Origin: Opitutales bacterium
GTDB taxonomy: Bacteria > Verrucomicrobiota > Verrucomicrobiia > Opitutales > UBA953
Assembly: GCA_044361555.1 (NCBI GenBank)
Contig: JBIKIO010000001.1
Location: 8,393-72,392, forward strand
Reading direction: 5' to 3'
Length of the DNA stretch: 64,000 nucleotides
This document shows, one piece after another, positions 40,946 to 63,535 of this stretch. The notes below the pieces were generated by a model that had not been told where the DNA came from, made no database searches, and saw nothing but the letters and a program-made list of their open reading frames with translations. How positions within the stretch are numbered: the first letter of the stretch is position 1; each line of letters starts with the position of its first letter. The translations under genes and the position numbers were made by a program.

Positions 40946-41185
40946 TATGTACAATAGCATACTCCTAGACTTACATGCCAACCTTAATCCCTCGTGGCAG
41001 CCTTACATCCGGCGTCCTATTGTCGCCCTTCGTTCGCAGGACCATCCAGCCCCTCCGTGGCCGCAGCTCATTCAGTCCTCAACAATCCGCGGGCTCCAGA
41101 GCCAGTCAGTGTTAGCCATCCATCAGTCCATCGGACCTTTCGTCTGAAGGCCTAGCCCACGTGTCAACTTGCCCACGTGCCCACT

Positions 41186-41218
41186 GCGCGAAATCAGCTT
41201 CGCTTGATGATTTCGCGC
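41186..41218. repeat. Perfect 11-bp inverted repeat spanning the SNF2 stop codon
   Basis: GCGCGAAATCA (41186-41196) and TGATTTCGCGC (41208-41218) are separated by 11 nt. The SNF2 stop (41196-41194) lies in one arm. No U-tract follows on the minus strand. Confidence 0.5.
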
Positions 41219-46310: not shown

Positions 46311-46479
46311 GGGATTTTGCCGTTAATCGGCCTTAATGGGTCATTTTCAGATAGAAACGCCGACGAGACCCCGATGTCAACATAATGTTAACACTTGTAA
46401 GTATCTATTTAACAGCGCTCTTCTTTTTAAGCCGCCCAACCCCTTGCTCCTGGGTCACCCAATACCCATACCTACGGAA

Positions 46480-48626: not shown

Positions 48627-49391
48627 ATGAGGAACTATCTGATTATCGTCGCATTGCTGGTCGTCGCTGCGCTCGCCTTCCTGGCCGGCCTGAAATACGC
48701 CGCAGCCGACGGCCAAGGCGGCGAAGTCAGATCGATGGCCCTCATGTTCGTCGCGCTGGGAGGCTGCCTGCTCGGCTACCTTAAGTACGCGGAGATCGAA
48801 GACCAGAACACCGAGCTCATCAAGGCCGGAGGAAACCGTTCGTCCCCATTGCTCCTCACCGAAATCGGCGCGGTCAAAGATGAGCTGCTACGTCTCGGCA
48901 ACCGGGCCTCGGAACCCGCCGCAGACGCGGCGACGCCGCCTGCGTCTGGTGATTTCAACGGCGCCATCGCGGCCTTGGCCAAAGACCTCGGCCTCCGGGA
49001 GAAGGAAACCCAGCGCCTGCACGAGGTTCTCATCCGTCGCGATCATCGCAACGTATTGGCAAGGCTCGCGACCATACGTGAGACCGCCGAGTTCACCCGC
49101 AAGATCAACGCCGCCGGGAAGATCGCCGACAAGGAGGCCCTCAGCCAGGTGATCATGGAGATCGAAGCCGCCCTCGACGACCTCGGGCTCGAGATCATGC
49201 ACGTCTCCGCGGGTACGCGCATCGCCGACCTGCCCAACGGCAGCTTCTCGATCCTCAGCGCCACGCAGGCGGAAGCCGGCGAACAACCGGGCACCGTCAA
49301 AGAGGCGGTCACCGAAGCGGTCTTCGTGCGTGATGCGGATGGCAAGCAAGTCTTCATCGCGCCCGCCAAGCTCAGGGCTTACAAACTCTGA
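48627..49391 (+). CDS. Two-TM-anchored GrpE-like protein (copy 1)
   Basis: N-terminal helices LIIVALLVVAALAFLAGL and MALMFVALGGCLLGYL. A helical stalk. C-terminus ALDDLGLEIMHVSAGTRIADLPNGSFSILSATQAEAGEQPGTVKEAVTEAVFVRDADGKQVFIAPAKLRAYKL resembles the GrpE C-terminal dimerisation/beta domain. Confidence 0.7.
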   Translation: MRNYLIIVALLVVAALAFLAGLKYAAADGQGGEVRSMALMFVALGGCLLGYLKYAEIEDQNTELIKAGGNRSSPLLLTEIGAVKDELLRLGNRASEPAADAATPPASGDFNGAIAALAKDLGLREKETQRLHEVLIRRDHRNVLARLATIRETAEFTRKINAAGKIADKEALSQVIMEIEAALDDLGLEIMHVSAGTRIADLPNGSFSILSATQAEAGEQPGTVKEAVTEAVFVRDADGKQVFIAPAKLRAYKL

Positions 49392-49393
49392 AA

Positions 49394-50077
49394 ATGACCC
49401 GCTGGCTTGCCTCCCTCCTCTTCGGTGCGATCGGCCTGGGCTTGTCAGGCCTGCTCGGTTCCGAACTCGGCCTAAGCTCCGGAATCTGGATCTCCCTGGG
49501 ACTCGTGCTCTGGTGGGCCGCCGGACTATTCTTCAACGACACGAATCAGTTCGCCGAAGATGTCAGCGAGCCGGCGACCATCTCCCCGCGACAGGCTGAC
49601 CCCCGCCCTGCGGACCCGACGGTGCCGGACGACCAGTCGCTGCAAGCCGCCGTCATCGAACTGACCAAGCAGCTGCGCGGCAAGGAGGCCCTGATCGACA
49701 ACCTGCAGGTCAAACTCACCGAACGAGAGTTCCGCCGTAGCCTTTCCCGCCTCGCCAGCGTCAACGAGACCCTGTCCTTCACGCTCAAGCTCCTCCAAGA
49801 CGGCAACCTCACCCATGCGGCCGCCGTCGAACAGCTCCGCCAGGAAATCGAGTCCGCCGTTGGCGACCTCGGACTGGAGCATCACTCGATCCAGGTCGGC
49901 GCCGCCGTCTCCACGCTTCCGGCCGGCTCCTTCGTGATCCTCCGCTCCGAGACCGCGCCGACGCCGGAACTCGCCGGCACCGTCAAGGAAGTCGTCAATT
50001 CAGGCCTGTACGCCAAGGACGAAGCCGGCCGACCCCATTTCATCTCACCCTCCAAAATCAACGTCTACAAACTCTGA
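49394..50077 (+). CDS. Two-TM-anchored GrpE-like protein (copy 2)
   Basis: Paralog of 48627-49391. AVGDLGLEHHSIQVGAAVSTLPAGSFVILRSETAPTPELAGTVKEVVNSGLYAKDEAGRPHFISPSKINVYKL. The start lies 2 nt after the upstream stop. Confidence 0.7.
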   Translation: MTRWLASLLFGAIGLGLSGLLGSELGLSSGIWISLGLVLWWAAGLFFNDTNQFAEDVSEPATISPRQADPRPADPTVPDDQSLQAAVIELTKQLRGKEALIDNLQVKLTEREFRRSLSRLASVNETLSFTLKLLQDGNLTHAAAVEQLRQEIESAVGDLGLEHHSIQVGAAVSTLPAGSFVILRSETAPTPELAGTVKEVVNSGLYAKDEAGRPHFISPSKINVYKL

Positions 50078-50079: not shown

Positions 50080-51618
50080 ATGGCTAACATCATCGGCATC
50101 GACCTCGGCACCTCGACCACCCTGCTCGCCCACCTGAGCAATTCCGGCGAGGCCATCATCTACAAGAACAAGGACAACGAACTCCTCACCCATTCGGCCG
50201 TCTGGTTCGAAGGCGAACGCTCCGTCATCGTCGGGACCGAAGCCAAGAAGATGTTCGGCGTCGCCAAGGCAGACGAGATCTTCATCGAATTCAAGCGGGA
50301 CATGGGCGACGCCACCGTGGTCCATAAGATCCACGGCAAGGATTGGCATCCGCGCGATTTCAGCGCGCTCGTCCTCCGTCAGATCCGGGAGCATTTCGAA
50401 GCCAACAACGGTCCGGTCGATGCCGTGATCATCACGATCCCCGCCAACTTCTCCGACGAAGCCCGCGTCAACACGATCAACGCCGCCAAGGAAGCCGGCT
50501 TCAACCTAGGCAACGACGCGCTGGTCAACGAACCCACCGCGGCGGCGATCTACTACGCCAGCACCTCCCCCTCGAAACTCAAAGGCAAATACCTGATCTA
50601 CGATTTCGGCGGGGGCACGTTCGACGCCACCATCCTCGACGTCGATGGCGATGACATCAAGGTGCTCACCAGCATGGGCGTCCAGCGCCTCGGCGGCAAG
50701 GATCTCGATGAGAAGCTCATCGGGCTCATCGGCCAGAAATACACGAAGCTCATCGGTGGCGAATTCAAGGGCAAGGAGACGATGAGCGAGATCCAGCTCA
50801 CGCGCTGGGAGGTGGAGCAGGCCAAGCTGACCCTCTCCTCCCGCGAACGCGTGTCGGTCGCCATGAAGACGCAGGACCGCGGTATCGTCCGGGCCGAGAT
50901 CACGCGTAACGAATTCAACGAAGCCATCTCCACGCTGATCACCCAGGCCGAGCTGGCCGTCGACACGGCGCTCGACAACGCCAAGCTTGAGGCCAAGGAC
51001 CTGGCCGGCGTCTTCCTCGCCGGGGGCTCCACCCTCGTCCCCGCCGTCGCTCAAAGCGTGGAACGGCACCTGGGCATCAAACCCATCAGCCGCGACCCCG
51101 TCGGTTCCGTCGCGCTCGGCGCCTGCATGTACGCCGCGATCCGCAACAAAGCCAAACTCTCCGGAGCCCAGACGGTCGCCGTCGGCGCCAAGAAGGTGCA
51201 GGACGTCACCCCGCACTTCTTCGGCACGACCTACCGCGACCGGGCCTCCGGCAAGCTCATGGTCGACACTATCATCGCCAAGGACCGCCCGCTGCCGTGC
51301 ACCGAAAGCAAGAGCTTCTCCCGCGGCGTGAACCAAGGCGACAGCATCAAGATCCAGATCACCCAGTCTGGAAGCGAACAGAGCGACCCGGATTTCGTGG
51401 ACATCATCTGGACCGACCACCTCAAGGAGCTCCCCATCGTGACCGATGATACCGAGATCAAAGTCAGCTACACCTATGACACGAACGGCATCATGCAGTG
51501 CACGATCCTCGACATCCTTTCCGGGAAATCACTCAGCGTGACCCTAGATAAGAAAGCCTCGACCAGCGCCAAGAAGCCGGCTGGCGGCGTCAACATCAAG
51601 GATTACACCCTCGAGTAA
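50080..51618 (+). CDS. Non-canonical short Hsp70 (512 aa, no helical lid)
   Basis: IIGIDLGTSTT, ALVNEPTAAAIYYA, YLIYDFGGGTFDATIL, VFLAGGSTLVPAV. The protein ends shortly after a beta-rich substrate-binding-like region. Canonical DnaK is about 640 aa. The start context is TGACCATGG. Confidence 0.92.
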   Translation: MANIIGIDLGTSTTLLAHLSNSGEAIIYKNKDNELLTHSAVWFEGERSVIVGTEAKKMFGVAKADEIFIEFKRDMGDATVVHKIHGKDWHPRDFSALVLRQIREHFEANNGPVDAVIITIPANFSDEARVNTINAAKEAGFNLGNDALVNEPTAAAIYYASTSPSKLKGKYLIYDFGGGTFDATILDVDGDDIKVLTSMGVQRLGGKDLDEKLIGLIGQKYTKLIGGEFKGKETMSEIQLTRWEVEQAKLTLSSRERVSVAMKTQDRGIVRAEITRNEFNEAISTLITQAELAVDTALDNAKLEAKDLAGVFLAGGSTLVPAVAQSVERHLGIKPISRDPVGSVALGACMYAAIRNKAKLSGAQTVAVGAKKVQDVTPHFFGTTYRDRASGKLMVDTIIAKDRPLPCTESKSFSRGVNQGDSIKIQITQSGSEQSDPDFVDIIWTDHLKELPIVTDDTEIKVSYTYDTNGIMQCTILDILSGKSLSVTLDKKASTSAKKPAGGVNIKDYTLE

Positions 51619-51624: not shown

Positions 51625-52839
51625 ATGGAATTCGTCTGCGGCTTCTTCATCCTCATGGGCATCATCGGAGCAATCAAAGGCCTGTTCGCGGGCGACAGCT
51701 CCTCCGCCAGTTCCTCCGCCTCTACCCCCTCCTCCGGCGGCGGCTACGGCGGCGGACGAAGCGGGTCGAACATGGGTCGGTTCGAGATCCGGGCGGCACA
51801 GGTCATGCGAGGCACCAAGAAGGACCTGCGGGCGATCGCCATCGAAGGGCGGGGGCTGCTTCCGGTCAGCCGGAGGATGGAGATCCAGTTCGTGACCTGG
51901 GCGGAGGACATCACCGACGACTCCTCCGGCGAGCCGATCTTCTGCAGTCTTTCCAATTTTCAGCATCACGAACACCCGACCTATCAGAACGTCCAGGACG
52001 CCGGCGACCTTGCGCCGAACCAAGGCTTCACCGATTGGGTCGAACTCGGCGTGGCGCCCCTCGACGCGCTCACCTTCCCCCGGAGCGGCGCACGCAACAT
52101 CCGCTTCTACTGCTACATGGCCGAGAAGACTTCGCCCAGCCTGCGCAAGAGCCTGCTCGGAGACAGCTGCAACCTACGGCTGACCGTCGATGAGACCGGC
52201 TACAAGGAATGGAAGGAAAAGCGCGTGGAAGCCCTCACCCTCTCCCTCCGGCTGGGTATCGCCATGGCGCACGCCGACGGCGAATTCGCCCGCAGCGAAG
52301 CCGCCGCCATCAAGCACTGGCTCAAAGAACGCGTCGAGCTGCTGGATGACGCGGAGCAGGCCTCCGCCAAGGCCAAGCTCAACGCCGCGATGGCGGCCGC
52401 CGTGGCGGAAGCCGGCGCCCGCACCCTCAACGTGTCCTCCGCCACGGCCACCCTCCGCGCGTCCCCGGTCCGTAACGCGCCTTATGACGCCTTGGAGCTC
52501 TGCACCATCATCATGGCCGCCGACGGGGTCATCGACCCCGCGGAGATGCGCCTGCTGCGCGAGATTGGCGATAAGATGGGCATCCCGGCGCAACAGATCC
52601 AAGGTCTGACCGACAAGCACACGCCCGAGGCCACCACCGCGGGCGATGACGGCGAGCTGAGCGACGAGCTGCTCGTCGGGCTCGACCCGAAACTGCCTCC
52701 CGCCGAAGCCAAGCGTAAGCTGCGCGAGATCTTCGCCCGCTACAATAGCATGCTGACGACCGAGCGCGACGCCTTCAAGCGCCAGCGCTACCAGGACTGC
52801 ATCGACGCGGTCGCCCGCCTCCGCAAGAAATATGGATGA
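51625..52839 (+). CDS. TM-anchored TerB-domain protein with J-like C-terminal tail lacking HPD (DjlA-like layout)
   Basis: N-terminal helix FVCGFFILMGIIGAIKGLF. TerB-type pairs LGIAMAHADGEFARSEAAAIKHWL and IIMAADGVIDPAEMRLLREIGDKMGI. Tail LVGLDPKLPPAEAKRKLREIFARYNSMLTTERDAFKRQRYQDCIDAVARLRKKYG. Confidence 0.85.
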   Translation: MEFVCGFFILMGIIGAIKGLFAGDSSSASSSASTPSSGGGYGGGRSGSNMGRFEIRAAQVMRGTKKDLRAIAIEGRGLLPVSRRMEIQFVTWAEDITDDSSGEPIFCSLSNFQHHEHPTYQNVQDAGDLAPNQGFTDWVELGVAPLDALTFPRSGARNIRFYCYMAEKTSPSLRKSLLGDSCNLRLTVDETGYKEWKEKRVEALTLSLRLGIAMAHADGEFARSEAAAIKHWLKERVELLDDAEQASAKAKLNAAMAAAVAEAGARTLNVSSATATLRASPVRNAPYDALELCTIIMAADGVIDPAEMRLLREIGDKMGIPAQQIQGLTDKHTPEATTAGDDGELSDELLVGLDPKLPPAEAKRKLREIFARYNSMLTTERDAFKRQRYQDCIDAVARLRKKYG

Positions 52840-53971
52840 CGCTGCCGCCATGGTGAAGCTCTGCCGCGAGCGCCTCACCCCTTGCCTGTTCCGCCTCCCG
52901 TCGACCAGCCTGAGCAAGGAACTCTCCGTCACGGCGACGCCGCGGGACGGCTCCTACTCCTCGCACATGCTGCGGGTGACCGCGGAACTCACCCCCACGA
53001 TGGAGGATGCGGTGCAGCTCGCCTGCCATAACCTCGGTTTCCCCCGGGAGATCCTGGACGTCTACGTGCGACCGAAGAACGAGAACAACGCCTTCAGCAG
53101 CCTGGACGGCGGCCGGGCCAAGCTCATCTTCAATTCCTATCTCGTCGAGATCTCGGACCGTGACGAGCTCGCCTACGTCGTCGGCCATGAACTCGGCCAT
53201 TACCTCTTCCCGGAGGCCAACGTCCGGCAGCTGACCCCCAACCTGGAAGGCTGCATGATCTCGCGTTACAGCGAGTTCACGATGGACCGTATCGGCCTGA
53301 TCGCCTGCCGTAGCGTCGACAAGATGGTCTCGGCCGAGCTCAAAAGCCTGAGCGGACTTTCCAGCAAGCACCTGCGCATGGACGCCACCGCCATCATCGC
53401 GCAGTGGCGGGAAGCCTCCAAGGCGGCCGATACCACCTCGATATGGCTCCGCTCGACCCACCCGCCCACGGGCATGCGCGCCAAGGCGCTCATTCAGTTC
53501 TACGGGTCGGACGCCTACCGCGCCGCCATCGGCCAGTCCGGCGGCGAACCCATCGACCAGGTCAACGCCTCGCTGGGGACCGAACTTGACCGCCTCCTCG
53601 ACAATCACGCCCATCAGCTGATCGCCGAAAAACTGAACAAGCTGAGCGGCTGGCTTTGCGCCTTTGTCGCCTCCCGCGGCATCAAGCTGCGCCTGTCGAA
53701 CCTTCGCCATGGCCTCTGCTCGGCCCCCGACGAGATCATCAAGCGCTGCCTGAGCATCGTCATCGAGGAGACCCCTGAGCCCGAGCGCGAGAAAGTCAGC
53801 AACGAAAAACTGCTGCTCGCCCTGCAGGAAGCCTGCGAACTGGCCCCGGGACATACCCGAGTCTACCTGCAGTCGGTGGCGGCCACGAGTGATGAGATCA
53901 AGCCGCTGCTGCAGCAACTTGACGGACTGAGCCGGCAGCAAGGCATCATGATCGTCCCCCCGGCCGCCTGA
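52832..53971 (+). CDS. Soluble M48-like zinc metalloprotease
   Basis: HExxH in YVVGHELGHYLF, and the downstream M48-type WLRSTHPPTGMRAKAL. No TM helix is evident. Alternative start at ATG 52850 (context GCCGCCATGG). The ATG at 52832 overlaps the upstream stop by 8 nt. Confidence 0.8.
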   Translation: MDDAAAMVKLCRERLTPCLFRLPSTSLSKELSVTATPRDGSYSSHMLRVTAELTPTMEDAVQLACHNLGFPREILDVYVRPKNENNAFSSLDGGRAKLIFNSYLVEISDRDELAYVVGHELGHYLFPEANVRQLTPNLEGCMISRYSEFTMDRIGLIACRSVDKMVSAELKSLSGLSSKHLRMDATAIIAQWREASKAADTTSIWLRSTHPPTGMRAKALIQFYGSDAYRAAIGQSGGEPIDQVNASLGTELDRLLDNHAHQLIAEKLNKLSGWLCAFVASRGIKLRLSNLRHGLCSAPDEIIKRCLSIVIEETPEPEREKVSNEKLLLALQEACELAPGHTRVYLQSVAATSDEIKPLLQQLDGLSRQQGIMIVPPAA

Positions 53972-53984: not shown

Positions 53985-55316
53985 TCAGAGATAGCGCTGC
54001 CTCAGCTTGGCGATGGCTTCGAGCTGGCGCGTGATCATGGCTCGGTCAGCGGCATCCTTCGGGTGGCGGGAATTCCACTTCATGAACTGATCCAGCAGAT
54101 GGCGGCGGATGCGGCGGGTATCCCAGCCGAGGTCCAAGCCCACGAGCTCCGCGTATTCCTGGTCACGCCCCGCTCCCTCCCCTTCGTTCGCCGCATCGAT
54201 ATGACGATGCAGTTCCTCCAGTCCGAGGCTCAGCTCACGACACAGGCCCTTGAGTTCGGCCATGACCTCGGCGGAAACGGCGCAATCGACCCTGCCGACC
54301 TCGACGCAAAGAGCCAGCGCCTCCTGCGGCATGCCGGCGACTTCATAGGCCAGGAGTTCGCGACAGACCACCCCGAGGTCGGACCTCGCCCCCCTGGCCA
54401 TAGTCGCCGCCGCTTCCAGCGAGGCCTGGGTCTGCGCGACCAATCGGGCGTCTTCGCCTTTCAACTGATCAAGGTGCCGGCGCATCCATGCCTGGGCGGC
54501 GGGCCCTGCCTGCAGCGGTTCACGTCGCACGCGCGCCGCGAACGCATAGCCCAGGCATACGACCAACCCCGCCGCGTTCTGACGGGCGTAACGTTGCTCG
54601 ACGTAACCCTTGCGGACAAGCGTGACCTCGAACTGGGTCGTCGCCGCCGCCAGCATACCTGCGCGCAGGCGCTCATCGATGACGGTAAGCCCCGCCAAGG
54701 CGGCAGGGACTGCCACGCAACTGAGTCTTAGCGTGCGCTGCCCGGATTTCGGAGCCCGGATATTAGCGAAAGGGATGATGCCGACCGAAGTCCAGCCGGA
54801 GTCAGGCCGGCCCGGCGACGACACCTTGCCGAGAGTGCTCCGGACGACGAACTGGCCAGTCTGGTCATCCTGATACCTCTCCATCGTGGCATAGACCGGC
54901 TGGGATGATCCGTCGCTCACGTCCTCCATCGTCACGACCAGGTCGACGATCGTCTCTCCCATCACCTCGATGCCGCCGCTCACGTCGATCCGGAAACCCG
55001 GCTGCTCCTCCCCGGTCTTCTTATCGCGCAATTGGCAGGCTTCGGCCTGCAGGCGGAAGGGCTTGCTCGAGATTGGCGCGAAGCGGACTCCGGGGAAAGC
55101 TTCGCGAAAAACCTGCTCGGCGCTCTTCGCCGAAGGGGGCTTTGCCTGGGAAGCGGACGAGGGTGGCGGACGATGGTTGGTCCGAGGAGGCGGCGGGGGC
55201 GGCGTATCCTTTCGCGGCGGTGGCGCCGCTTCCGCCTTATCCTTACGCCACAGGTACAGATAGACGCCACCTCCGGCGAGGACCATGGCGGCGGCGATGT
55301 AGACGTAGGCGTTCAT
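53985..55316 (-). CDS. TM-anchored, Pro-rich paralog of 51625-52839 with J-like tail carrying HPKD
   Basis: N-terminal helix YVYIAAAMVLAGGGVYLYLW, then EAAPPPRKDTPPPPPPRTNHRPPPSS. The middle domain aligns by eye with 51625-52839 (VTMEDVSDGSSQPVY vs VTWAEDITDDSSGEPIF; PKSGQRTLRL vs PRSGARNIRF). Tail YAELVGLDLGWDTRRIRRHLLDQFMKWNSRHPKDAADRAMITRQLEAIAKLRQRYL. Confidence 0.8.
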   Translation of the reverse strand: MNAYVYIAAAMVLAGGGVYLYLWRKDKAEAAPPPRKDTPPPPPPRTNHRPPPSSASQAKPPSAKSAEQVFREAFPGVRFAPISSKPFRLQAEACQLRDKKTGEEQPGFRIDVSGGIEVMGETIVDLVVTMEDVSDGSSQPVYATMERYQDDQTGQFVVRSTLGKVSSPGRPDSGWTSVGIIPFANIRAPKSGQRTLRLSCVAVPAALAGLTVIDERLRAGMLAAATTQFEVTLVRKGYVEQRYARQNAAGLVVCLGYAFAARVRREPLQAGPAAQAWMRRHLDQLKGEDARLVAQTQASLEAAATMARGARSDLGVVCRELLAYEVAGMPQEALALCVEVGRVDCAVSAEVMAELKGLCRELSLGLEELHRHIDAANEGEGAGRDQEYAELVGLDLGWDTRRIRRHLLDQFMKWNSRHPKDAADRAMITRQLEAIAKLRQRYL

Positions 55317-55381
55317 GCCGGGACGAAAGGCAGATGATGCTCCCTCAGGCCCACCCTACTGCCAATCTCATAAACTGGCGG

Positions 55382-55900
55382 CTATCCCTCCACCTGCCAC
55401 GCGGCCAGATCGGCGAACAAGACGGCGTGACGCGGATCGGCACAGGCCGGCTTGAACCATCGTTGCCGCGGAGCCGACGGCGACAGGTCGTCATACCAGG
55501 CGACGACCGCGGGCATCAAGGGGTGCGGCGCCCGCCAGAGCTCGATGCCCTTGTGGCCCTGGGTGACTTCGGCCCACGTCGCGAAAGCCTGCGTCTCTTC
55601 CCTGAGAAAATCCAGCAACAGACCGGACAGGTCATCCGGGCCGCCGAAACCGACGTCGTAATCGTAGAGGTAGGCGCCGGCGAGCTGCTTGGCGAAGGCG
55701 GCGACATCCGTGTTCTCCCGGCGAAAACCGGCCCGGAAAGAGTACCGGTCAGGCAAGGTGGCCAGCATCGTCTCACGGACGATTGCGAAGTAAGTCCAGG
55801 CCATCATGACGCGGAATTGGGCTTCTTGGTCGCCCCGTTGCATCGCCGCCGTGATGCGCCGGCGCGTCGAGAACTCTAGGTAAGCGGGATTGGGAGCCAT
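55382..55900 (-). CDS. Hypothetical protein, 172 aa
   Basis: An internal ATG at 55900 lies 2 nt after the stop of the small upstream ORF (TGACCATGG). The track ORF extends to 55972 with an alternative start. No motif recognised. Confidence 0.6.
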   Translation of the reverse strand: MAPNPAYLEFSTRRRITAAMQRGDQEAQFRVMMAWTYFAIVRETMLATLPDRYSFRAGFRRENTDVAAFAKQLAGAYLYDYDVGFGGPDDLSGLLLDFLREETQAFATWAEVTQGHKGIELWRAPHPLMPAVVAWYDDLSPSAPRQRWFKPACADPRHAVLFADLAAWQVEG

Positions 55901-55902
55901 GG

Positions 55903-56082
55903 TCAGAACAGCGCCTTGCAGCCCTTGATGACGAGGCCGAGGACGAACAGCACTCCCACGCCGACCAGGCATCCGCCGAGATAGTTACCCCAGCCGCCCG
56001 CCCGTTCCGCCTTGGCGTTGATCACGAAAAGGACGAAAGCGCCAGTCAACAGCATGCAGATCAATTGACCGGGGTCTTTCAT
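55903..56082 (-). CDS. Small two-TM membrane protein, 59 aa (below the ORF-track cutoff)
   Basis: Hand translation: MKDPGQLICMLLTGAFVLFVINAKAERAGGWGNYLGGCLVGVGVLFVLGLVIKGCKALF*. ATG at 56082-56080, TGA at 55905-55903, coupled to the next gene by TGACCATGG. Confidence 0.5.
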   Translation of the reverse strand: MKDPGQLICMLLTGAFVLFVINAKAERAGGWGNYLGGCLVGVGVLFVLGLVIKGCKALF

Positions 56083-56224
56083 GAATGAGGTGATAAGCGC
56101 GGCCGCGCGGGGGTCAACCTCGCCCGAACAGGCCGATGATTTTCACGAATTCTTTACAAAGGAAAGTAGTATACATTTGCGGCCGACCCGGACTTGCGAA
56201 GAATCCGCGACCTCCCCCACCCTG
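56083..56224. promoter_or_regulatory. Divergent intergenic region between the small-TM operon (minus) and Hsp70 module 2 (plus)
   Basis: A 142-nt gap containing a locally AT-rich stretch (gattttcacgaattctttacaaaggaaagtagtatacatttgc). No confident -35/-10 assignment. Confidence 0.3.
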
Positions 56225-56623
56225 ATGCGAGACTATAACGAATACTACGTCTTCCTGAACGCCACCCCCCAGAGCAGCCAGGCCGACATCGACCGGGCGT
56301 ACCAATCGGTGATCGGCGAAGCCCGGCGCCAAGGAGGGTTCATGCTGGACATCGTGGAAGAAGGCTACCGCTGCCTCTCGGATCCGACCACCCGCGCCCA
56401 ATATCATGCCGGCACCTACCGTCATGATATTCGCGTGAGCATGCTGCGCGAATCTCATGACCGCGAAGGCCGCACCGCCCAGTTCGACGCGTTTCCACGG
56501 CTCAAGAAGATCCAGTTCTACCAGTATATCTTCGACTCTGACGAAGTGAACGTGACCTTCGAGATGCTACCCAACGGGAAGTTCCGCAATACGAAGACCG
56601 GCGAGATCGTCGACCAACTCTGA
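56225..56623 (+). CDS. J-like domain protein lacking the HPD motif, 132 aa
   Basis: The ATG at 56225 gives MRDYNEYYVFLNATPQSSQADIDRAYQSVIGEARRQGGFMLDIVEEGYRCLSDPTTRAQYH. This follows the J-domain helix I-III pattern (YY.lLgv....s..eI..AY......HPD.....f..i.eAY.vLsD...R..Yd), with EARRQGG where HPD is expected. Confidence 0.6.
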   Translation: MRDYNEYYVFLNATPQSSQADIDRAYQSVIGEARRQGGFMLDIVEEGYRCLSDPTTRAQYHAGTYRHDIRVSMLRESHDREGRTAQFDAFPRLKKIQFYQYIFDSDEVNVTFEMLPNGKFRNTKTGEIVDQL

Positions 56624-56628
56624 CCGCC

Positions 56629-57087
56629 ATGGGTCTTTTCGACGCACTCTTCGGGCCTTCGGTCAAGGAACGGATGCTGCCCTATTTCCAAGGGCGTGGA
56701 AAACCGATGCATGAGCGGATCAGCCGCTGCGTCCGGGAGCTCTACCCCACCCTGGAGCTGAGTGACATCACTCCTTTCCATGAGGCCGGGAGCGAGCTGA
56801 CCGCTTCGGCCGACGGCTCGAACGAAGCACAGGCGATCTTCTCGGCCTGCGCCGCCCGGGCCGGCATGAAGGTCATCGCCATGACCATGCAGAAGGGCGC
56901 CGACCCTGACTGGCGCGTGATCATCAACAGCGAAAGCGTGGGTGTCTCCGCTCGGCCGTCCGATCTCCTGCAATTCGGCAAATACCGTAACGTCCGCACG
57001 CGCGTCCAGATCTGGATGTGCCTCCATGACGATGACACCCCGATGATGGACATTGTCACCGGCCCGGATTGGGAGAGACTTACCTGA
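56629..57087 (+). CDS. Hypothetical protein, 152 aa
   Basis: ATG in the context ACCGCCATGG, 5 nt after the upstream stop. Ordinary protein-like composition. No motif recognised. Confidence 0.6.
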   Translation: MGLFDALFGPSVKERMLPYFQGRGKPMHERISRCVRELYPTLELSDITPFHEAGSELTASADGSNEAQAIFSACAARAGMKVIAMTMQKGADPDWRVIINSESVGVSARPSDLLQFGKYRNVRTRVQIWMCLHDDDTPMMDIVTGPDWERLT

Positions 57088-57091
57088 CTCC

Positions 57092-57715
57092 ATGCGCGAC
57101 CCTGACTTCAATTACACCAAAGCCACGCTGAGCGAGCTCCAGACCCAGGCGGCCAAGCATGACGCCTATGCGATGAATGCGCTCGCCTGGCGTCTCGCGC
57201 ATGGCGAAGGCGTCGCCGTGGATGGCGCCGAATCCCGCCGGTGGTACGCCCGCTCGGCCGCCCTCGGCAACGCCGAGGGGCTTTACAACCTCGGGGTCTG
57301 CCATGTGAACGGCGACTTAGGAAAGATCGACCCTGTCGAAGCCTGTCGGCTTTGGCGATTGGCCGCGGCCAAGAACCACTACGCCGCGCTCGGTAATCTT
57401 GGGATTTCTTATTACTACGGGAACGGCGTACCCCAGGACTACGTGCAAGCCCGCGAATGGTTCCTCCGTTCGGCCAACACCGACGAACCTCGCGCCATGG
57501 GCATGATGGGGCAATTCTACCATCTCGCACGGGGCGTCCCCGAGGATAAGATCGAGGCGTTGGCGTGGTATCTTCTCGCCGCCGAAAAATCTGACGAGAC
57601 GGCCGTTCCGAGGACGAACCTCCTGAGGGAACTCACCGCGGCGCAGCAAGCCTCCGCCCGGACCCGCGCCGAAGTCCTGCGCCAGTCGATCAAGCATACG
57701 CCCTACCTCGACTGA
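57092..57715 (+). CDS. Sel1-repeat protein
   Basis: ATG at 57092, 4 nt after the upstream stop. Repeats such as AMNALAWRLAHGEGVAVDGAESRRWYARSAALGNAEGLYNLGVCHVNG. Confidence 0.85.
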   Translation: MRDPDFNYTKATLSELQTQAAKHDAYAMNALAWRLAHGEGVAVDGAESRRWYARSAALGNAEGLYNLGVCHVNGDLGKIDPVEACRLWRLAAAKNHYAALGNLGISYYYGNGVPQDYVQAREWFLRSANTDEPRAMGMMGQFYHLARGVPEDKIEALAWYLLAAEKSDETAVPRTNLLRELTAAQQASARTRAEVLRQSIKHTPYLD

Positions 57716-57723
57716 GCCTTCCC

Positions 57724-58416
57724 ATGGATTACTACTCCAAGATGGATGACAGCGCCGTCGAGGCCAAGGCCGCGGCCGGCGACCCTGTCGCCCAGACTCG
57801 GCTCGGCGTCCTCCATGCACGCGGCCAAGGCCGTCCGAAGGATTTCGCGCAGGCCCTCCATTGCTGGCAACTGGCGGCCGCCCAGGGGCACGCCGACGCG
57901 ATGTGCAATCTCGGCAACCTCTATGACCTGACCGACGATCACCCCCGTGATGACGTCGAAGCCGCCCGCTGGTATCGGGAGGCGGCCGAGCGCGGACATC
58001 TTAAGGCCCAGTTCAACCTAGGAATAAAATATTCCCACGGACAGGGGCTGGTTCGGGACATGGCCCAGGCCGCCCGCTGGTTCCGCGCCGCGGCGGACCA
58101 AGGCGACTCCATGGCGCAGTTCAACTTCGCGCTGCAATGCGTGCATGGGGAGGGCGTGCCGAAAGACGCCGGCCTCGCCGCCCGCTACCTCAAACTGGGC
58201 GCGGACCAAGGCGACGTCCAATGTCTGAACAGCTTGGCGATCCTCCATGCCACCGGCGACGGCGTCCCGCATGATCTCGTGCGGGCCTATGCGCTCTGGA
58301 CGGTCGCCATCCGCAACGGCGGCACCCAGTCGGAAGGCAACCTCCGCCACCTCACCACCACCATGACCCCGCGCCAGATCGAATTGGGCGAACAAGCCGC
58401 CGCGCAGATCCGCTGA
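57724..58416 (+). CDS. Sel1-repeat protein
   Basis: Repeats: AQTRLGVLHARGQGRPKDFAQALHCWQLAAAQGHADAMCNLGNLY; AARWYREAAERGHLKAQFNLGIKYSHGQG; and further units. Confidence 0.9.
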   Translation: MDYYSKMDDSAVEAKAAAGDPVAQTRLGVLHARGQGRPKDFAQALHCWQLAAAQGHADAMCNLGNLYDLTDDHPRDDVEAARWYREAAERGHLKAQFNLGIKYSHGQGLVRDMAQAARWFRAAADQGDSMAQFNFALQCVHGEGVPKDAGLAARYLKLGADQGDVQCLNSLAILHATGDGVPHDLVRAYALWTVAIRNGGTQSEGNLRHLTTTMTPRQIELGEQAAAQIR

Positions 58417-58420
58417 TCCT

Positions 58421-59002
58421 ATGACGCACCCGCTCATCGATCTCTTCGCTATGCCGACGCTTCCCATGGCGTTCTCGAGCGTGATCCGTAACCTCCCCGT
58501 CCCCTTCACCCGCAAACTCACCAAGCGACCCAAGAACGGCTGCCTGCTCGCCAACGATGAGTTCTACGTCGTATTCGAAACCTACCCGCTGGCCGTCAAG
58601 CAGATGACCCAGATGATCGGCGAGCAGCAGATCGACCCGATCCCCGTCGAGTACCTTTACGCCGCGTCCGTCTTCTATCGTAAATCGCGTAATCCGCACG
58701 GCCCTTCCTCCCGCCCGATCTACGTCTTCTGCCTAGAATACACCGAGTTCACCTGCGATATGAGATCCCGCGGACTCTGGGATACGCTGACCGGCAAGCC
58801 CAAGCATCCCGCCGAAGTCTTCTCCGCCGTCTTCTTCGCCGACGGGCGCACCAACCATGGCAAAGTGCCGAACGACTTCACGGATGCCTCGGCGCGCGAA
58901 TACCTCATGCTCGGCGTATGTGAGCGGCTAGGCCTGACGCGCGGCGACTTCCGGGAGATCGGCCCGCTGTCGCTCGGAGCCGACTGCCCCGAAGTCGCGT
59001 AA
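58421..59002 (+). CDS. Hypothetical protein; paralog of the C-terminal domain of 61278-62105
   Basis: Shared blocks, first from this gene then from 61278-62105: DEFYVVFE vs DDFYVIVE; SVFYRKSRNPHGPSSRPIYVFCLEYT vs SCFYRESRSPHPRARRHPIAIFTLEHS; GLWDTLTG vs GFFDRLLG. Confidence 0.7.
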   Translation: MTHPLIDLFAMPTLPMAFSSVIRNLPVPFTRKLTKRPKNGCLLANDEFYVVFETYPLAVKQMTQMIGEQQIDPIPVEYLYAASVFYRKSRNPHGPSSRPIYVFCLEYTEFTCDMRSRGLWDTLTGKPKHPAEVFSAVFFADGRTNHGKVPNDFTDASAREYLMLGVCERLGLTRGDFREIGPLSLGADCPEVA

Positions 59003-59012
59003 GACTCCGGAT

Positions 59013-60491
59013 ATGGCGAACGAGATCAATAAGCCGATTGGCACCCCGGTCCTGATCGGGATCGGGCTCGGTGTCCACGAAACCACCGTCGCCAGGCTCA
59101 ATGAAGCGGGTAAGCCTGAGCTTGTCCGGAATATCGACGGCGAAGAATCTACGCCCTCCGTCGTCCTGATCGACGATGGCGGCGCAGTTACGGTCGGTCG
59201 CGAAGCCAGTAAGTTCATCGGAACAGGCATGCCAGGGGTCTTCGCTGAATTCACGCGCGACCTGGGCAACCCCTCGGCCTGCGGCGGACTTAACCGCACG
59301 CCCACGCCGATGGCCCTGACCACACTACTCCTCCGGCAGGTCGTCCAAGGAGTCACGGAATCGTTCGGCCGGTTGACCGCGGTCACGATCGCCATACCCG
59401 CAGATGCGACTAGCCACTTCAGGGTAGCCGTGCATGCGGCCGCCCGTGAGGCGGGCCTTCCCGATGTCAAGTTGACCGACGAAACTACGGCCGCCGCGCT
59501 ACAACTGACTTCGCAGGAAGAGCTCCGCGGCAAATACCTCTGGTATCGAATGGCGAAAAGTACCTTCGACGCAGCCATCTTCGAGTCCACCGCCCGTACG
59601 GTCAGCATTCTGGCCAACTTCAGAATCCAACGGCTGGGTTCGAAAGATTTCGATCAAAAACTCCTGAACCTTATCCATCAGAAATACCTGCGGATGACGG
59701 GCGACACGAAAAGCGCCCAAGACTTTCAGGTAGATTGCAGCCTCACCCGGCTGGATCTCGAGAGCGCACGGGAAACCTTGAGCACAAGGTCGAGGACAGC
59801 CTTGCGGCTCGTCTCTGGAGACCATGGCCCGTTGAAGATCGAGCTCACCCAAGAGGACTTCGGCTCCGCTGTCCGCCCTCTTCTGGAACAAGCTGCGCTG
59901 GCTGTCGACATGGCACTGGATCAGGCCAATCTCAGACCTCAGGAGCTCACCGGCGTCTTCTATACCAGCGACGACGACCTCGGGCACGTCATCCAAACGC
60001 ACCTGGCCAGTCATACTGGTCAGCGCGCTCGTCCGACCGCGCCTCAGGTCGTCGCGCTTGGCGCCGCCTTAGTCTCGGCGAAAAAGGCGAATCCAGAAGA
60101 TCTTAACGCCCTGCAATCAATAAGCGCACAGTACCTGAAAATTACGGATATAGCGCCGCACTACCTAGGACTTATCGATCGTGATTGGCTGACAGGAACC
60201 TTACAGAACCGGATCATCATCAGGAAAGGCGAACCCATCCCTTGCGCCCGCCGCTTCGAGGTCCAAGCCGACGGCACCGGCTTCTTTCCAGCGATCGGAC
60301 TGACCCAATCCGGCTCCGAACAGACCGACCCCGATTTCGTCGCTATCATCGGGAATATTTCGTCCTCCCAGTTTCGGCCACATGCCAAAATCCTGCTCAC
60401 GATCGGCTACGACGTTAACGGCGTAGCCTATGCCAAACGGGAAAACATCGATGAGGGCGGCCACCAGGAAATCCGCGTCGGGCCAGGGTAG
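59013..60491 (+). CDS. Hsp70-fold paralog with eroded nucleotide-binding motifs (probable pseudo-ATPase)
   Basis: Collinear with 50080-51618, but the motifs differ, first from this gene then from 50080-51618: VLIGIGLGVHETT vs IIGIDLGTSTT; LTDETTAAALQL vs VNEPTAAAIYY; YLWYRMAKSTFDAAIF vs YLIYDFGGGTFDATIL; VFYTSDDDLGHVI vs VFLAGGSTLVPAV. The shared C-terminal block (I/L)TQSGSEQ(S/T)DPDFV confirms paralogy. Confidence 0.85.
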   Translation: MANEINKPIGTPVLIGIGLGVHETTVARLNEAGKPELVRNIDGEESTPSVVLIDDGGAVTVGREASKFIGTGMPGVFAEFTRDLGNPSACGGLNRTPTPMALTTLLLRQVVQGVTESFGRLTAVTIAIPADATSHFRVAVHAAAREAGLPDVKLTDETTAAALQLTSQEELRGKYLWYRMAKSTFDAAIFESTARTVSILANFRIQRLGSKDFDQKLLNLIHQKYLRMTGDTKSAQDFQVDCSLTRLDLESARETLSTRSRTALRLVSGDHGPLKIELTQEDFGSAVRPLLEQAALAVDMALDQANLRPQELTGVFYTSDDDLGHVIQTHLASHTGQRARPTAPQVVALGAALVSAKKANPEDLNALQSISAQYLKITDIAPHYLGLIDRDWLTGTLQNRIIIRKGEPIPCARRFEVQADGTGFFPAIGLTQSGSEQTDPDFVAIIGNISSSQFRPHAKILLTIGYDVNGVAYAKRENIDEGGHQEIRVGPG

Positions 60492-60648
60492 GCCCCTGAA
60501 AATCCTCCGCCACTCAGGTTCGCCCGCGGAGAAGCCGGCCGAGCCCGTTGAAATTGTAAAATAAGTTTAAAACATCGGATTAGCGCCACGGATAAAGAGT
60601 GGATGATCGACACTCCGGACGGGCCACTTAGCGTCTGCCCCCTTCCTC

Positions 60649-61170
60649 ATGGCATTGCGCATCAGCACAGTCATCAGCGTCGTCAGCTGGTTGTTCGAAA
60701 CGTGCAAGGAATTGTCAACGCCGCCGCCCCATCGCGCAGTCGCCTCCCCTACCCCGGTCTGGGACGAGGTCGAAATGCAGTCCAGTGGGCTGATCATCCG
60801 ACAGTGGCATGCGCAGGCCTTCGCCGCTCATCACTCCAAGCGCGGCCTGAGCGCAGCGCTCCGGAAAGAACTACGGCGACAAGCCGACCACCTGTCGAAG
60901 ACGCCATACGAGGACCGAGACACCGTCATGCGCTTGAGGCGACATCTTGACGCTGCGCTGAAGGTGTCGGCTGACGATGAAGCCACGATCAAGGCGGCCT
61001 TCCTGCACGTCTACCAATTCTTGCCTCATCTGAACAAAGAGTGGCTCCAGGATATCATCGACGACTGCCAGGTCTTGGCGCGCGTCCACCCCCCGACGAG
61101 GGCGTGCCACGCGCTGGTACGGCAGATGGCCAAGCACCTCGGCGTGAAGGTCCGCCGACTGCGCCGCTGA
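60649..61170 (+). CDS. Hypothetical helical protein (start uncertain: 60649 or 60775)
   Basis: Only ORF evidence and plausible composition. Competes with short antisense ORFs. No motif recognised. Confidence 0.4.
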   Translation: MALRISTVISVVSWLFETCKELSTPPPHRAVASPTPVWDEVEMQSSGLIIRQWHAQAFAAHHSKRGLSAALRKELRRQADHLSKTPYEDRDTVMRLRRHLDAALKVSADDEATIKAAFLHVYQFLPHLNKEWLQDIIDDCQVLARVHPPTRACHALVRQMAKHLGVKVRRLRR

Positions 61171-61277
61171 CAACTTTCAGCCATGCGTCTTGCACCCCTG
61201 ATCGAATTGCACGCCGAGTGGCACGATGGAGGGCAATTCGCCTAGGGCTAATTCACGCGACTCCCTGTCACAATCCT

Positions 61278-62105
61278 ATGCCCAACAAGCCAAAGCACTC
61301 ATCGTCCACCCGCCGGAAGCCCGCCGGAAGCAAAAGCCCGGGCAAGCATGACCTGACCAAGCCCCGCCAAGCCGGGAAGGCGCGAAGCGCGGGGTCTAAA
61401 TTCAGCCACCGTCCCTATAAGCCCCGGAAACCCACGCCCAAGAAGCCCCGCTCCGCGGAGGCGATCTTGCAGGAGGCACGTGCCACCCGGAAAGCCCTGA
61501 TCCGTAAGGCCAGCCGGCGCCCGAGCATTAAGGCCGTCTCCCGGCCTTCGCCGACCAGCGCCGCCCACCCCAAGAGTTCCGCTAGCCGGGTCTTCCCGCC
61601 GCTCTTGGAGGCCATCGGCAACCCTCCGGTCATCGCCAGCGGTCATGGGCAATACGACGCACGACCCGAGGTATGGGCCGCCGACGATTTCTACGTCATC
61701 GTCGAAGCCGAGCCGGCATGCGTCGGGGCCTTCGCCCGGGAGCTGATCGGTTTCCGCTACGTCATGTCGGCGAGCTGCTTCTACCGTGAAAGCCGCAGCC
61801 CGCACCCCCGGGCGCGCCGTCATCCGATCGCTATCTTCACCCTCGAACACTCGAAAGCGCTTCCCCATTCGGACCCAGGCTTCTTCGATCGCCTGTTGGG
61901 AGAGGAAGCCAAGCCGCTCAGCATGGTCGTCGGCGGGTTCGTCGCGGACGCTCGCCTCAGATTCGATAGCGTCAGTTACGACGAGGACTTCCCGCGCGGT
62001 AGACAGCGTCTGCTTGCCATGGCCCGAGAGCATGTCGGCATCAGACCCCATTTCGATTTCTACGGCTATCTCACCCAGGGAGAGATCCTCCCGGCCATGA
62101 GGTAA
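61278..62105 (+). CDS. Hypothetical protein: basic K/R/P-rich N-terminal region + domain paralogous to 58421-59002
   Basis: The ATG at 61278 gives MPNKPKHSSSTRRKPAGSKSPGKHDLTKPRQAGKARSAG.... The C-terminal domain shares the blocks listed under 58421-59002. The track ORF start 61041 overlaps the previous ORF. Confidence 0.65.
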   Translation: MPNKPKHSSSTRRKPAGSKSPGKHDLTKPRQAGKARSAGSKFSHRPYKPRKPTPKKPRSAEAILQEARATRKALIRKASRRPSIKAVSRPSPTSAAHPKSSASRVFPPLLEAIGNPPVIASGHGQYDARPEVWAADDFYVIVEAEPACVGAFARELIGFRYVMSASCFYRESRSPHPRARRHPIAIFTLEHSKALPHSDPGFFDRLLGEEAKPLSMVVGGFVADARLRFDSVSYDEDFPRGRQRLLAMAREHVGIRPHFDFYGYLTQGEILPAMR

Positions 62106-62617: not shown

Positions 62618-63187
62618 TTACCTGCACCACCAAAGATTCGCTTCTAGGTGGTGCAGGCCTTTGGGGACATTACGCCAGCCCTCACGCCATGCGTAGGCGT
62701 GGAAGCCGACAAGCATGTCAGCCATCTGTAACTGCGGACAGGCGTGGGACCGTTCCATGCGGACCTCCCTGGCACCTAAAGCGGCTCTTATCTCCGATGA
62801 GCGAAGGCGGTCCCGCTCGCCGTCGATGACGATCCTGACAGCCGGCTTATGAAAGCCGAAGGCATCGTAACAATGAAGCATCACCGCCACCTCGGGGCGA
62901 TACCCAGATGGCAATGGACCACGTTGCTTATCCCAGATCGCCACGCGGTGCGCGACAAGTAACCGCGCCATAGCTGTCAGGTAAGCCATTCTCACATCGG
63001 ATGGCATCTTCGACCACTTGAACTCGCCTGACCATCTGAGCCCGACGCGGGTCTTTTCCTGAGCCTCGGCAAGCCGAGCCGCGGTTTCTCCGTCAGCACA
63101 GTGCAGCATAGCTATGGCGAAGTAAGACGACGAACCTGATTTGGTCGACAGCCCCGGATCGCCGCTTTCGTCACAAAAAATCAACAT
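62618..63187 (-). CDS. DUF3800-family protein, 189 aa
   Basis: The ATG at 63187 gives MLIFCDESGDPGLSTKSGSSSYFAIAML (DUF3800-type start) and a later LQMADMLVG. The track start 63295 is a TTG inside the repeat. Confidence 0.7.
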   Translation of the reverse strand: MLIFCDESGDPGLSTKSGSSSYFAIAMLHCADGETAARLAEAQEKTRVGLRWSGEFKWSKMPSDVRMAYLTAMARLLVAHRVAIWDKQRGPLPSGYRPEVAVMLHCYDAFGFHKPAVRIVIDGERDRLRSSEIRAALGAREVRMERSHACPQLQMADMLVGFHAYAWREGWRNVPKGLHHLEANLWWCR

Positions 63188-63290
63188 ACACCATTGCCTT
63201 GATTGGAATCGGTTTCGGCAACCCGACCTCATTGGTGACTTAACTTCAGATGCAGCTGAGCGGTTAAACTGCCTATAGCCAAATCCCTCC

Positions 63291-63535
63291 CCCAACCGCT
63301 AACCGCCAACCGCTTCCACCTAACCTGGGTAGGGTCGGGACCGCGTCACGACATAGCTGCCTCTCTGTGCTCCCAACCGCCAACCGCTTACCGCCAACCG
63401 CTCGCGGCATAGCCGCGGTAGGTAGGGATGACCGGCTCGGTCATCCTCGGGCGCGCGGGCCGCACGCCCCTACCCTACGACATAGGGGTTTTTCCGGCTT
63501 GAGGGTAAATGGACATCAGACACTCTTTAGTTATC
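63291..63535. repeat. Structured direct repeat, copy B, 3' of the second DUF3800 gene
   Basis: See copy A. The offset between copies is 994 bp. Confidence 0.85.

Follow-up and report, generated by a model that had tools for sequence, protein, structure and literature searches.

An apparently ATPase-dead Hsp70 paralog, probably kept by selection, beside an intact copy in an Hsp70-TerB-M48 gene cluster of an Opitutales bacterium

The 64,000-nucleotide stretch of DNA analyzed here (the window) comes from an Opitutales bacterium (GenBank assembly GCA_044361555.1, contig JBIKIO010000001.1, positions 8,393 to 72,392 of the forward strand) and contains a cluster of ca. 12 kb with two Hsp70 paralogs (Table 1). 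Hsp70s are textbook ATP-driven chaperones, composed in this case of a nucleotide-binding domain (NBD) and the beta part of the substrate-binding domain (SBD-beta). One of the paralogs, HSP70a, is intact, while the other, HSP70deg, has an eroded nucleotide site and appears to encode a catalytically dead protein. The cluster has a two-part layout. The left operon runs on the forward strand in the order g254, g227, HSP70a, TerB-domain protein, and M48 peptidase, and the right module combines the operon g59-g172-g443 on the opposite strand with the HSP70deg operon, which reads forward as J-like protein, g152, two Sel1-repeat proteins, g193, and, always last, HSP70deg, with intergenic gaps of 4 to 10 nt. 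The initial annotation had described HSP70deg as an intact open reading frame (ORF) of 492 codons with no frameshift, and this is indeed what we found.

Table 1. Features of the window. Positions are counted from the first nucleotide of the window.
Feature	Positions	Strand	Description
Large ORF	10117-12867		Flanks the MoxR-vWA gene set
Large ORF	12864-14354		Flanks the MoxR-vWA gene set
MoxR-vWA gene set	14360-26266	-	bpMoxR AAA+ ATPase (PF20030, 4e-50), two vWA proteins, protein kinase, PP2C phosphatase
Sel1-repeat protein, 574 aa	32620-34347	-	Further Sel1-repeat protein
DUF805 protein	39875-40981	-	Membrane protein
SNF2 helicase	41194-43362	-	
cca-DUF2779 pair	44907-48369		CCA-adding enzyme with HD domain; DUF2779 protein with weak Cas4-like matches
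g254	48627-49391	+	Membrane-anchored protein, first gene of the HSP70a operon
g227	49394-50077	+	N-terminal membrane segment, coiled coil, and C-terminal domain; directly upstream of HSP70a
HSP70a	50080-51618	+	Lidless Hsp70 paralog of 512 aa, intact, with every nucleotide-binding residue conserved
TerB-domain protein	51625-52839	+	Membrane-anchored, 404 aa, downstream of HSP70a; Pfam TerB 4.4e-11
M48-family zinc metallopeptidase	52832-53971	+	379 aa, HELGH motif; Pfam Peptidase_M48 1.2e-10
g443	53985-55316	-	Membrane-anchored, full-length paralog of the TerB protein, last gene of the operon g59-g172-g443
g172	55382-55900	-	Conserved 172-aa protein, no family match, divergent operon
g59	55903-56082	-	Small hydrophobic (membrane) protein, first gene of the divergent operon
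J-like protein	56225-56623	+	Opens the HSP70deg operon; 132 aa with the start taken from orthologs
g152	56629-57087	+	Conserved 152-aa protein, no family match; missing in L004, L017, and L018
Sel1-repeat protein, 207 aa	57092-57715	+	HSP70deg operon; Pfam Sel1 7.5e-27
Sel1-repeat protein, 230 aa	57724-58416	+	HSP70deg operon, synteny conserved; Pfam Sel1 1e-37
g193	58421-59002	+	193 aa, 4-10 nt upstream of HSP70deg across loci; no recognizable fold relative
HSP70deg	59013-60491	+	492-aa lidless Hsp70 homolog (NBD + SBD-beta, helical lid absent), intact ORF
g275	61278-62105		g193 paralog
DUF3800 protein	62618-63295	-	

The two paralogs are 35% identical over 470 columns (BLASTP, E 4e-82), and both exceed the cut-off of the Pfam HSP70 model (PF00012, 20.6 bits), HSP70a with 219.3 bits and HSP70deg with 81.6 bits. 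Their alignment includes the C-terminal block TQSGSEQ(T/S)DPDFV, already noticed as common to both. The four motif exchanges listed in the initial annotation proved exact: from HSP70a to HSP70deg, GIDLGTS becomes GIGLGVH (phosphate-1), NEPTAAA becomes DETTAAA, DFGGGTFD becomes RMAKSTFD (phosphate-2), and AGGSTLVP becomes TSDDDLGH (adenosine motif). To place them relative to the catalytic residues, we used phmmer against solved DnaK structures (E 3e-22 for HSP70deg), MAFFT with Escherichia coli DnaK, and an 18-sequence family alignment. In all of these, the substitutions fall on DnaK catalytic columns and none is offset; since both alignments with DnaK put them in the motif columns, the catalytic residues have not merely shifted position.

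In DnaK numbering, the replacements are D8 by G, T11 by V, T12 by H, K70 by T, D194 by R, G196-G198 by AKS, and G341-G342 by SD. We scored seven catalytic features (D8, T11, K70, E171, D194, G196-198, and G341-342), and E171 is the sole survivor in HSP70deg, which thus lacks the residue set of an ATPase. Two points had escaped the initial annotation, namely, the loss of the catalytic Lys70 (T in HSP70deg and M or I in the orthologs) and the fact that Val stands in place of Thr11 in every HSP70deg ortholog. Conversely, the change in NEPTAAA is the weakest of the four, because Glu171 is retained in HSP70deg and one ortholog clade still has (N/S/T)EPTAAA.

Degenerate orthologs are eroded at the same positions as HSP70deg, with residues that differ by subclade. 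Phosphate-2 reads RMAKST, RLGQGS, RLDNGG, or HLNKAG, and the adenosine loop reads TSDDD, TCEDG, or VCEEV. A few replacements are constant throughout the degenerate clade: Val at position 11, Arg or His at 194, and Ser or Cys followed by two acidic residues at 341 to 343. Of the 38 columns of the nucleotide site, 36 are invariant in five intact orthologs compared with 10 in eight degenerate ones. As far as the alignments tell, this pattern of erosion is beyond chance, and we infer that HSP70deg has lost nucleotide binding.

The AlphaFold2 (AF2) model of HSP70deg, obtained with the family alignment as input, has a predicted local distance difference test (pLDDT) of 87.7 and a predicted TM score (pTM) of 0.85. 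It shows a complete two-lobed actin-like NBD, a linker, and an eight-stranded beta-sandwich SBD (residues ~376 to 488), and this last region aligns to the SBD-beta of DnaK by phmmer, MAFFT, and Foldseek. There is no helical lid (SBD-alpha), as the protein ends at residue 492, right after SBD-beta; HSP70a is likewise lidless. The best PDB match in Foldseek was the ATP-state, domain-docked DnaK structure 4b9q (TM 0.80, root mean square deviation 4.0 Å), while the TM values against ADP-state, undocked structures were <0.6. Several docking residues (R151, D393, and D479) are retained in HSP70deg.

A protein search retrieved HSP70deg orthologs at 99, 89, 57 to 54, and 40 to 37% identity (P0001-P0008), whose genes were recovered on metagenome contigs. 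In at least 10 distinct contigs, at 40 to 89% identity, their reading frames run uninterrupted by frameshifts or stops over the full length of 492 to 503 aa, and the 12 ortholog coding sequences that we extracted contain zero stops. We estimated the ratio of nonsynonymous to synonymous substitution rates (dN/dS, or omega) by the pairwise Nei-Gojobori method, with 95% intervals from a codon bootstrap. The value for HSP70deg against its 89% ortholog was 0.25 (0.17 to 0.36), the second subclade (B) gave 0.19 to 0.28, and clades A and B overall spanned 0.17 to 0.28, with bootstrap intervals of <0.4. In the same genomes, HSP70a had 0.07 to 0.10. With a dN/dS well below 1, selection retains the HSP70deg protein, 3 to 5 times less tightly than it does HSP70a. 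The comparison of substitution rates suggested with the initial annotation thus shows that purifying selection acts on HSP70deg, but it is clearly relaxed, or the gene is diversifying, relative to HSP70a.

The constraint is unevenly distributed along the protein. In clades A and B, the linker and SBD had an omega of 0.11 to 0.18 versus 0.23 to 0.32 for the NBD, and 36% of the SBD columns are invariant versus 23% of the NBD columns outside the nucleotide site. Altogether, 112 columns are invariant across the degenerate clade, among them those of an SBD loop, DWLTGxLxNRIIIxKGxPIP, that is absent from HSP70a. The open orthologs and the low dN/dS support the initial proposal of a maintained, non-catalytic protein rather than a pseudogene, and neither of the two outcomes named as refuting it (offset catalytic residues, or orthologs that decay) was observed. 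Thus, HSP70deg appears to be a genuine gene, preserved by selection, whose product is an Hsp70 paralog without catalytic activity, and we consider it highly probable that the protein is both non-catalytic and maintained.

All HSP70deg orthologs come from metagenome or sequencing-run assemblies. A pattern-based scan of isolate and species-representative genomes (one for each of 185,579 species) found no ortholog and only one Hsp70, at 23% identity, in Noviherbaspirillum. By tblastn, neither the PLSDB plasmids nor the INPHARED phages contained an ortholog; g193 and M48 were unmatched, and HSP70deg had only two matches, both of them distant (29%) Hsp70 genes carried by cyanobacterial plasmids in PLSDB. 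The wider family was explored by an exhaustive HMMER search with a profile of the degenerate clade against 1.84 billion representative proteins, which gave 1,041 relatives at E <1e-30. The best 150 of these 1,041 consist of two degenerate-clade representatives and 148 others, which were scored for the seven features. Most of them (130 of 148) are fully intact lidless Hsp70s of ~500 aa, while 15 lack at least three features, three of these owing to N-terminal truncation. The genuinely degenerate relatives, which include P0135, P0136, P0137, P0139, P0143, P0146, P0147, and P0175, rank close to the top. In a rough neighbor-joining tree, heavily degenerate Hsp70s grouped with the window clade, possibly by long-branch attraction, with partly degenerate forms (e.g., the third Hsp70 of locus L007) nearby and the intact paralog clade apart. 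HSP70deg would be a member of a small deep group within the lidless Hsp70 family in which three to seven of the seven scored catalytic features have been lost.

The loss of motifs extends to the partners of HSP70deg. The J-like protein is homologous in its N terminus to the J domain (hhalign probability 94.4%, E 8.7e-8, profile columns 5 to 67 of 71), and 19 of its 23 matches in a PDB profile search were J domains. However, the columns of KYHPDK face a gap in the hhalign alignment, and the Pfam DnaJ score (20.2 bits) is under the 27.8-bit cut-off. The fold homology is thus supported in a protein from which the His-Pro-Asp (HPD) loop is gone. This loop is the trigger of ATP hydrolysis by Hsp70. 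HPD-less J-like proteins are also found in related clusters. As for g443, it shares 25% identity over 327 aa with the TerB protein (BLASTP, E 3e-21), but both positions of the "ADG" motif are replaced (ARV and VDC) and there is no Pfam TerB match; by its sequence, we regard it as a putative pseudo-TerB. The cluster seems, therefore, to combine an active pair (Hsp70 and TerB protein) with a degenerate pair (HSP70deg and pseudo-TerB) plus an HPD-less J-like protein.

A side observation concerns the C terminus of both TerB-type proteins, which share a motif "LxGLD...(Y/W)N(S/A)...AIAKLR" that by eye resembles J-domain helices I-II; the hhalign match to the J domain is weak (probability 29%). The TerB protein of locus L007 bears two copies of "LxGLD...(Y/W)N." Likewise by eye, the layout of g227 had made it a candidate GrpE-like protein; this was not supported, as phmmer against PDB and Pfam gave no GrpE match at E values up to 10.

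The gene directly upstream of HSP70deg, g193, defines a family that comprises 66 or more sequence clusters, none of them functionally named and none with a Pfam domain over the g193 region (one match carries an unrelated PF00572). Its invariant motif, FYRKSRNPHGPSxRPI..LE(Y/H), has the appearance of a putative active site. The AF2 model of g193 has a pLDDT of 91.8, and Foldseek found nothing significant for it in PDB (best E 0.26) or BFVD (best E 0.07). A g193 paralog, g275, lies ~0.8 kb downstream of HSP70deg and is also present in L016, L029, and L021; its N terminus is extended by a long basic stretch rich in Lys and Pro. A promoter and terminator scan of 55300 to 61300 gave nothing informative.

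The two-part layout is shared by the window and loci L001, L016, and L024-26. Loci L004, L017, and L018 are variants, all without g152, and L004 is also devoid of the J-like, Sel1, and g172 genes. In the loci compared, HSP70deg and HSP70a always co-occur within one cluster. Between the window and L024, dS is near 0 in the right module and 0.10 to 0.19 in the left operon, so the two halves of the cluster have been inherited separately. This mosaic structure, together with the shuffled alleles of g193 and HSP70deg (L023 versus L010/L016), indicates frequent recombination inside the cluster.

Other loci show further combinations of these genes. In L007/L008 (ENA GROS21-1 scaffolds, 210 to 11485), there are three Hsp70 paralogs, of which two are intact and the third has lost only phosphate-1, together with M48, a TerB-like protein, and a 1086-aa superfamily 1 (AAA_11/AAA_12) helicase, a cluster that looks like an intermediate stage of degeneration. 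In L021/L022 (6861 to 11500), the Hsp70 is degenerate in five of the seven scored features (IVNLGETTLD, IMGEACRIP, and K70 to L) and lies downstream of three genes, two of them g193-like and one g275-like. One g193 homolog adjoins a type I restriction-modification (R-M) system and an Hsp70-TerB-M48-helicase set. The cca-DUF2779 pair flanks the cluster in the window, and cca is on the opposite side of it in L001, L010, and L016. In L029/L030, the same pair flanks a different cargo, with genes for a repeat protein of 842 aa, two J-like membrane proteins without HPD, and Sel1, g275-like, and g193-like proteins, and with no Hsp70 in the 20.5 kb of L029 that were analyzed. The cca-DUF2779 site thus looks like a hotspot for variable islands. 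The closest taxon-labeled relatives of the window cca (57 to 62% identity) are metagenome-assembled genomes of Opitutales, Puniceicoccales, and other Verrucomicrobia.

Regarding the genomic setting, the window also contains a bpMoxR AAA+ ATPase with two vWA proteins, a protein kinase, and a PP2C phosphatase, a gene set that resembles the MoxR-vWA ternary conflict systems described by Kaur et al. 2020 (PMC7159879). The two large ORFs flanking it had no family match. Genes for AIPR, HNH, Z1/HATPase_c_3, and type I R-M proteins adjoin orthologous or related clusters. This neighborhood suggests a role of the cluster in biological conflict or membrane stress. Other conflict-type genes of the window are that of the SNF2 helicase, which strongly matches the PADLOC models DrmD (DISARM, 403 bits) and DpdE (357 bits), and that of the DUF3800 protein, which weakly matches the PADLOC candidate PDC-M04A (E 3e-7). 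The window also has one further Sel1-repeat protein. DUF805 proteins, such as the one in the window, and GYF_2 proteins recur near L004 and L029.

As an overall explanation, we lean toward HSP70deg being a nucleotide-independent binding or scaffold subunit. Such a protein could not run the ATP-driven clamp-and-release cycle. Its SBD would probably hold one dedicated partner or ligand, because the clade-invariant loop and the stronger constraint on the SBD in subclades A and B point to dedicated binding, while the NBD may offer a fixed surface on which the J-like protein without HPD, the Sel1 scaffolds, or the membrane-anchored pseudo-TerB could dock. Together with the J-like protein, the Sel1 scaffolds, g193, and g443, HSP70deg would form a degenerate regulatory or sensor module, coupled to an active module of HSP70a, the TerB protein, and the M48 peptidase. 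At the membrane, the active module would provide ATP-driven remodeling and proteolysis. This specific form of the scaffold or adaptor role is a tentative proposal.

Several points weigh against this interpretation. Some actin-fold proteins bind nucleotide through divergent motifs. AF2 tends toward the docked state for Hsp70s, and for this reason the docked model of HSP70deg is weak evidence for a locked conformation. In the third subclade (C), dN/dS reaches 0.44 to 0.56 (upper bound 0.74) and the SBD is conserved no better than the NBD. In addition, HSP70deg is the fastest-evolving gene of the cluster, with a dN of 0.36 to 0.38 versus 0.03 to 0.20 for its neighbors; against L001, its dN is 0.38 and its dS is 1.8, with a dS of 0.3 to 1.2 in the neighboring genes. 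The identities of g193 and HSP70deg to their window counterparts are discordant (89% for HSP70deg and 65% for g193 in L023; 54 and 82%, respectively, in L010/L016), and this lack of covariation argues against a tightly coevolving pair. Moreover, the gene of P0135, a related degenerate Hsp70, is not preceded by g193 on the short contig that carries it. Finally, PADLOC-DB v2 had no match for HSP70deg, HSP70a, g193, Sel1, J-like, g152, g172, g443, M48, g227, or g254, and for the TerB protein it gave a marginal match to PDC-S48 (E 0.0015). In view of this lack of a meaningful model match, it is the neighborhood that speaks for a role in defense.

Among the alternatives, HSP70deg could be a co-chaperone similar to Hsp110 or Ssz1, forming an NBD-mediated heterodimer with HSP70a and modulating its cycle by exchange or recruitment, with no client of its own. 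There are eukaryotic precedents in Hsp110 and in Ssz1-zuotin-Ssb (PMC13580251). The constant presence of both paralogs in one cluster and the purifying selection on the NBD would also agree with this arrangement. However, it is the SBD rather than the NBD that is more constrained in clades A and B, and recombination has exchanged the two modules independently of each other (window versus L024), which is unexpected for a tightly coadapted heterodimer. Hsp110 requires bound ATP for exchange and Ssz1 binds ATP, whereas the site of HSP70deg is destroyed. We therefore consider a co-chaperone of this type unlikely.

HSP70deg and the J-like protein could also act as an anti-phage decoy or sensor that mimics the host DnaK/DnaJ, traps phage proteins that hijack or inhibit them, and triggers the Hsp70-TerB-M48 module. 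The location in a defense or conflict island, the patchy distribution over metagenome contigs only, the fast evolution of HSP70deg (whose dS and dN exceed those of all other genes of the cluster), and the shuffling of its alleles with g193 are all compatible with such a function. However, no component matches a validated defense system, the M48 peptidase is the only recognized toxic-type effector activity, and a membrane-stress chaperone role for TerB and M48 fits equally well. This makes a decoy rather unlikely, and we give the same low weight to a two-tier Hsp70 immune or stress system in which the degenerate module, as bait or sensor mimicking the Hsp70 machinery, would switch on the active module once engaged, e.g., by a phage protein directed at DnaK/DnaJ.

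A third alternative is that HSP70deg still depends on a nucleotide, binding ATP, another nucleotide, or some ligand through non-canonical residues and cycling slowly, as HscC-type Hsp70s do. E171 persists in HSP70deg and in clade B, the clade as a whole has kept R71, T14, and D201 (E in clade B), and the partly patterned substitutions at 194 and 341 to 343 could define a new ligand site. However, the Mg and phosphate ligands D8 and D194, the catalytic K70, T11, and the phosphate and adenosine glycine loops have been lost simultaneously, and K270 and S274 are also lost in part of the clade. Besides, the cognate J-like protein has no hydrolysis-stimulating loop, and a candidate exchange factor is missing from the HSP70deg operon, while HSP70a has g227 next to it. 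Residual nucleotide dependence is accordingly improbable. A decaying pseudogene, i.e., one duplicated Hsp70 copy drifting with its frame open by chance of time, would fit the motifs that differ by subclade like unconstrained sites, the highest dN in the cluster, and the omega above that of HSP70a, but this reading is effectively refuted by ORFs intact in every lineage down to 40% identity, bootstrap upper bounds of omega of ≤0.36 in clades A and B and <0.75 in clade C, the 112 invariant columns, conserved synteny and translational coupling, and a confident AF2 fold.

If HSP70deg is a nucleotide-independent binding subunit, as we favor, the active and dead copies provide a natural pair and thus a clean system in which to study functions of Hsp70 that do not need nucleotide, such as binding, scaffolding, and sensing. 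To our knowledge, Hsp70 paralogs without a cycle are known mainly from eukaryotes (Ssz1/HSPA14) and still bind ATP. The results also point to an undescribed Hsp70-TerB-M48 cluster in conflict islands of uncultured freshwater Verrucomicrobiota-like bacteria and to g193 as a conserved partner with a confident predicted structure unmatched in PDB or BFVD. Were the bait or sensor function to be true, pseudo-chaperones would represent a new class of bacterial pathogen sensors.

In the literature that we searched, the cluster is undescribed, and the only bacterial Hsp70 with a dead ATP site is CnuD of the CoCoNuT systems (see below). Several known systems resemble parts of it. Lidless bacterial "DnaK derivates" (e.g., many of the extra Hsp70s of Myxococcus), as well as HscC and HscA, are recognized forms with clients that are uncharacterized or specialized (PMC13580251), and they share with HSP70deg the size of ~500 aa and the shortened or missing lid. 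Another resemblance is to DjlA, in the combination of a TerB-type domain with an Hsp70 partnership at the inner membrane; the TerB protein has a weak match to the NCBIfam DjlA model (E 0.0025). DjlA has a canonical HPD J domain, whereas the motif shared by the C termini of the TerB protein and g443 bears only a weak resemblance to J-domain helices I-II.

The GAP1-N2 GTPase-centric conflict systems include Hsp70-GrpE-DnaJ/TPR modules in which Hsp70 serves as a conformational switch, sometimes with a second, truncated Hsp70 paralog and with J-domain or TPR partners (Kaur et al. 2020, PMC7159879). Nevertheless, the HSP70deg cluster has no GTPase, tubulin, or FNIII component, and the GAP1-N2 systems are found mainly in Actinobacteria and Firmicutes. 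The second paralogs differ as well, since that of GAP1-N2 lacks the peptide-binding domain, while HSP70deg keeps this domain and has lost the ATP site.

Closer in kind is CnuD, an Hsp70-like component of the type III, McrBC-related CoCoNuT systems that has degenerate Walker A-like motifs and is predicted to hydrolyze ATP very poorly at best (PMC11090510). Both are prokaryotic Hsp70 homologs with degenerate motifs in defense loci. However, CnuD is predicted still to bind ATP or ADP, whereas the pocket of HSP70deg appears lost altogether. CnuD is linked or fused to an NxD-type McrB GTPase (CnuB), DUF2357 (CnuC), HEAT, and HEPN RNases, and Pfam scans of the cluster genes and of the ortholog loci found no McrB GTPase, DUF2357, HEAT, or HEPN. 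Instead, the partners of HSP70deg are the intact Hsp70 paralog, TerB, M48, Sel1, the J-like protein, and g193.

The other close comparison is with Ssz1/HSPA14, the non-cycling Hsp70 of the eukaryotic ribosome-associated complex (RAC), which has a truncated substrate-binding region and no hydrolysis cycle, associates stably with a J-protein partner, and supports a canonical Hsp70 (PMC13580251). The RAC core structure (PDB 6sr6) was among the Foldseek matches of HSP70deg. Ssz1 retains the nucleotide-binding motifs and binds ATP, and its partner zuotin has a functional HPD. HSP70deg departs from this type in both respects, with the pocket residues lost and a J-like partner without HPD, and it is bacterial and set in a membrane and conflict-island context with no link to the ribosome. 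Judging from the sequences compared, HSP70deg would be set apart from both Ssz1 and CnuD by the loss of the whole pocket, the intact paralog alongside, and the degenerate copies of its partners. The idea of a dead Hsp70 is, thus, not unprecedented; what had not been described is a coherent and experimentally tractable system, set in a conflict island and including the unmatched fold of g193, in which the full loss of the ATP site, under selection, is mirrored by the degeneration of the J-like and TerB proteins.

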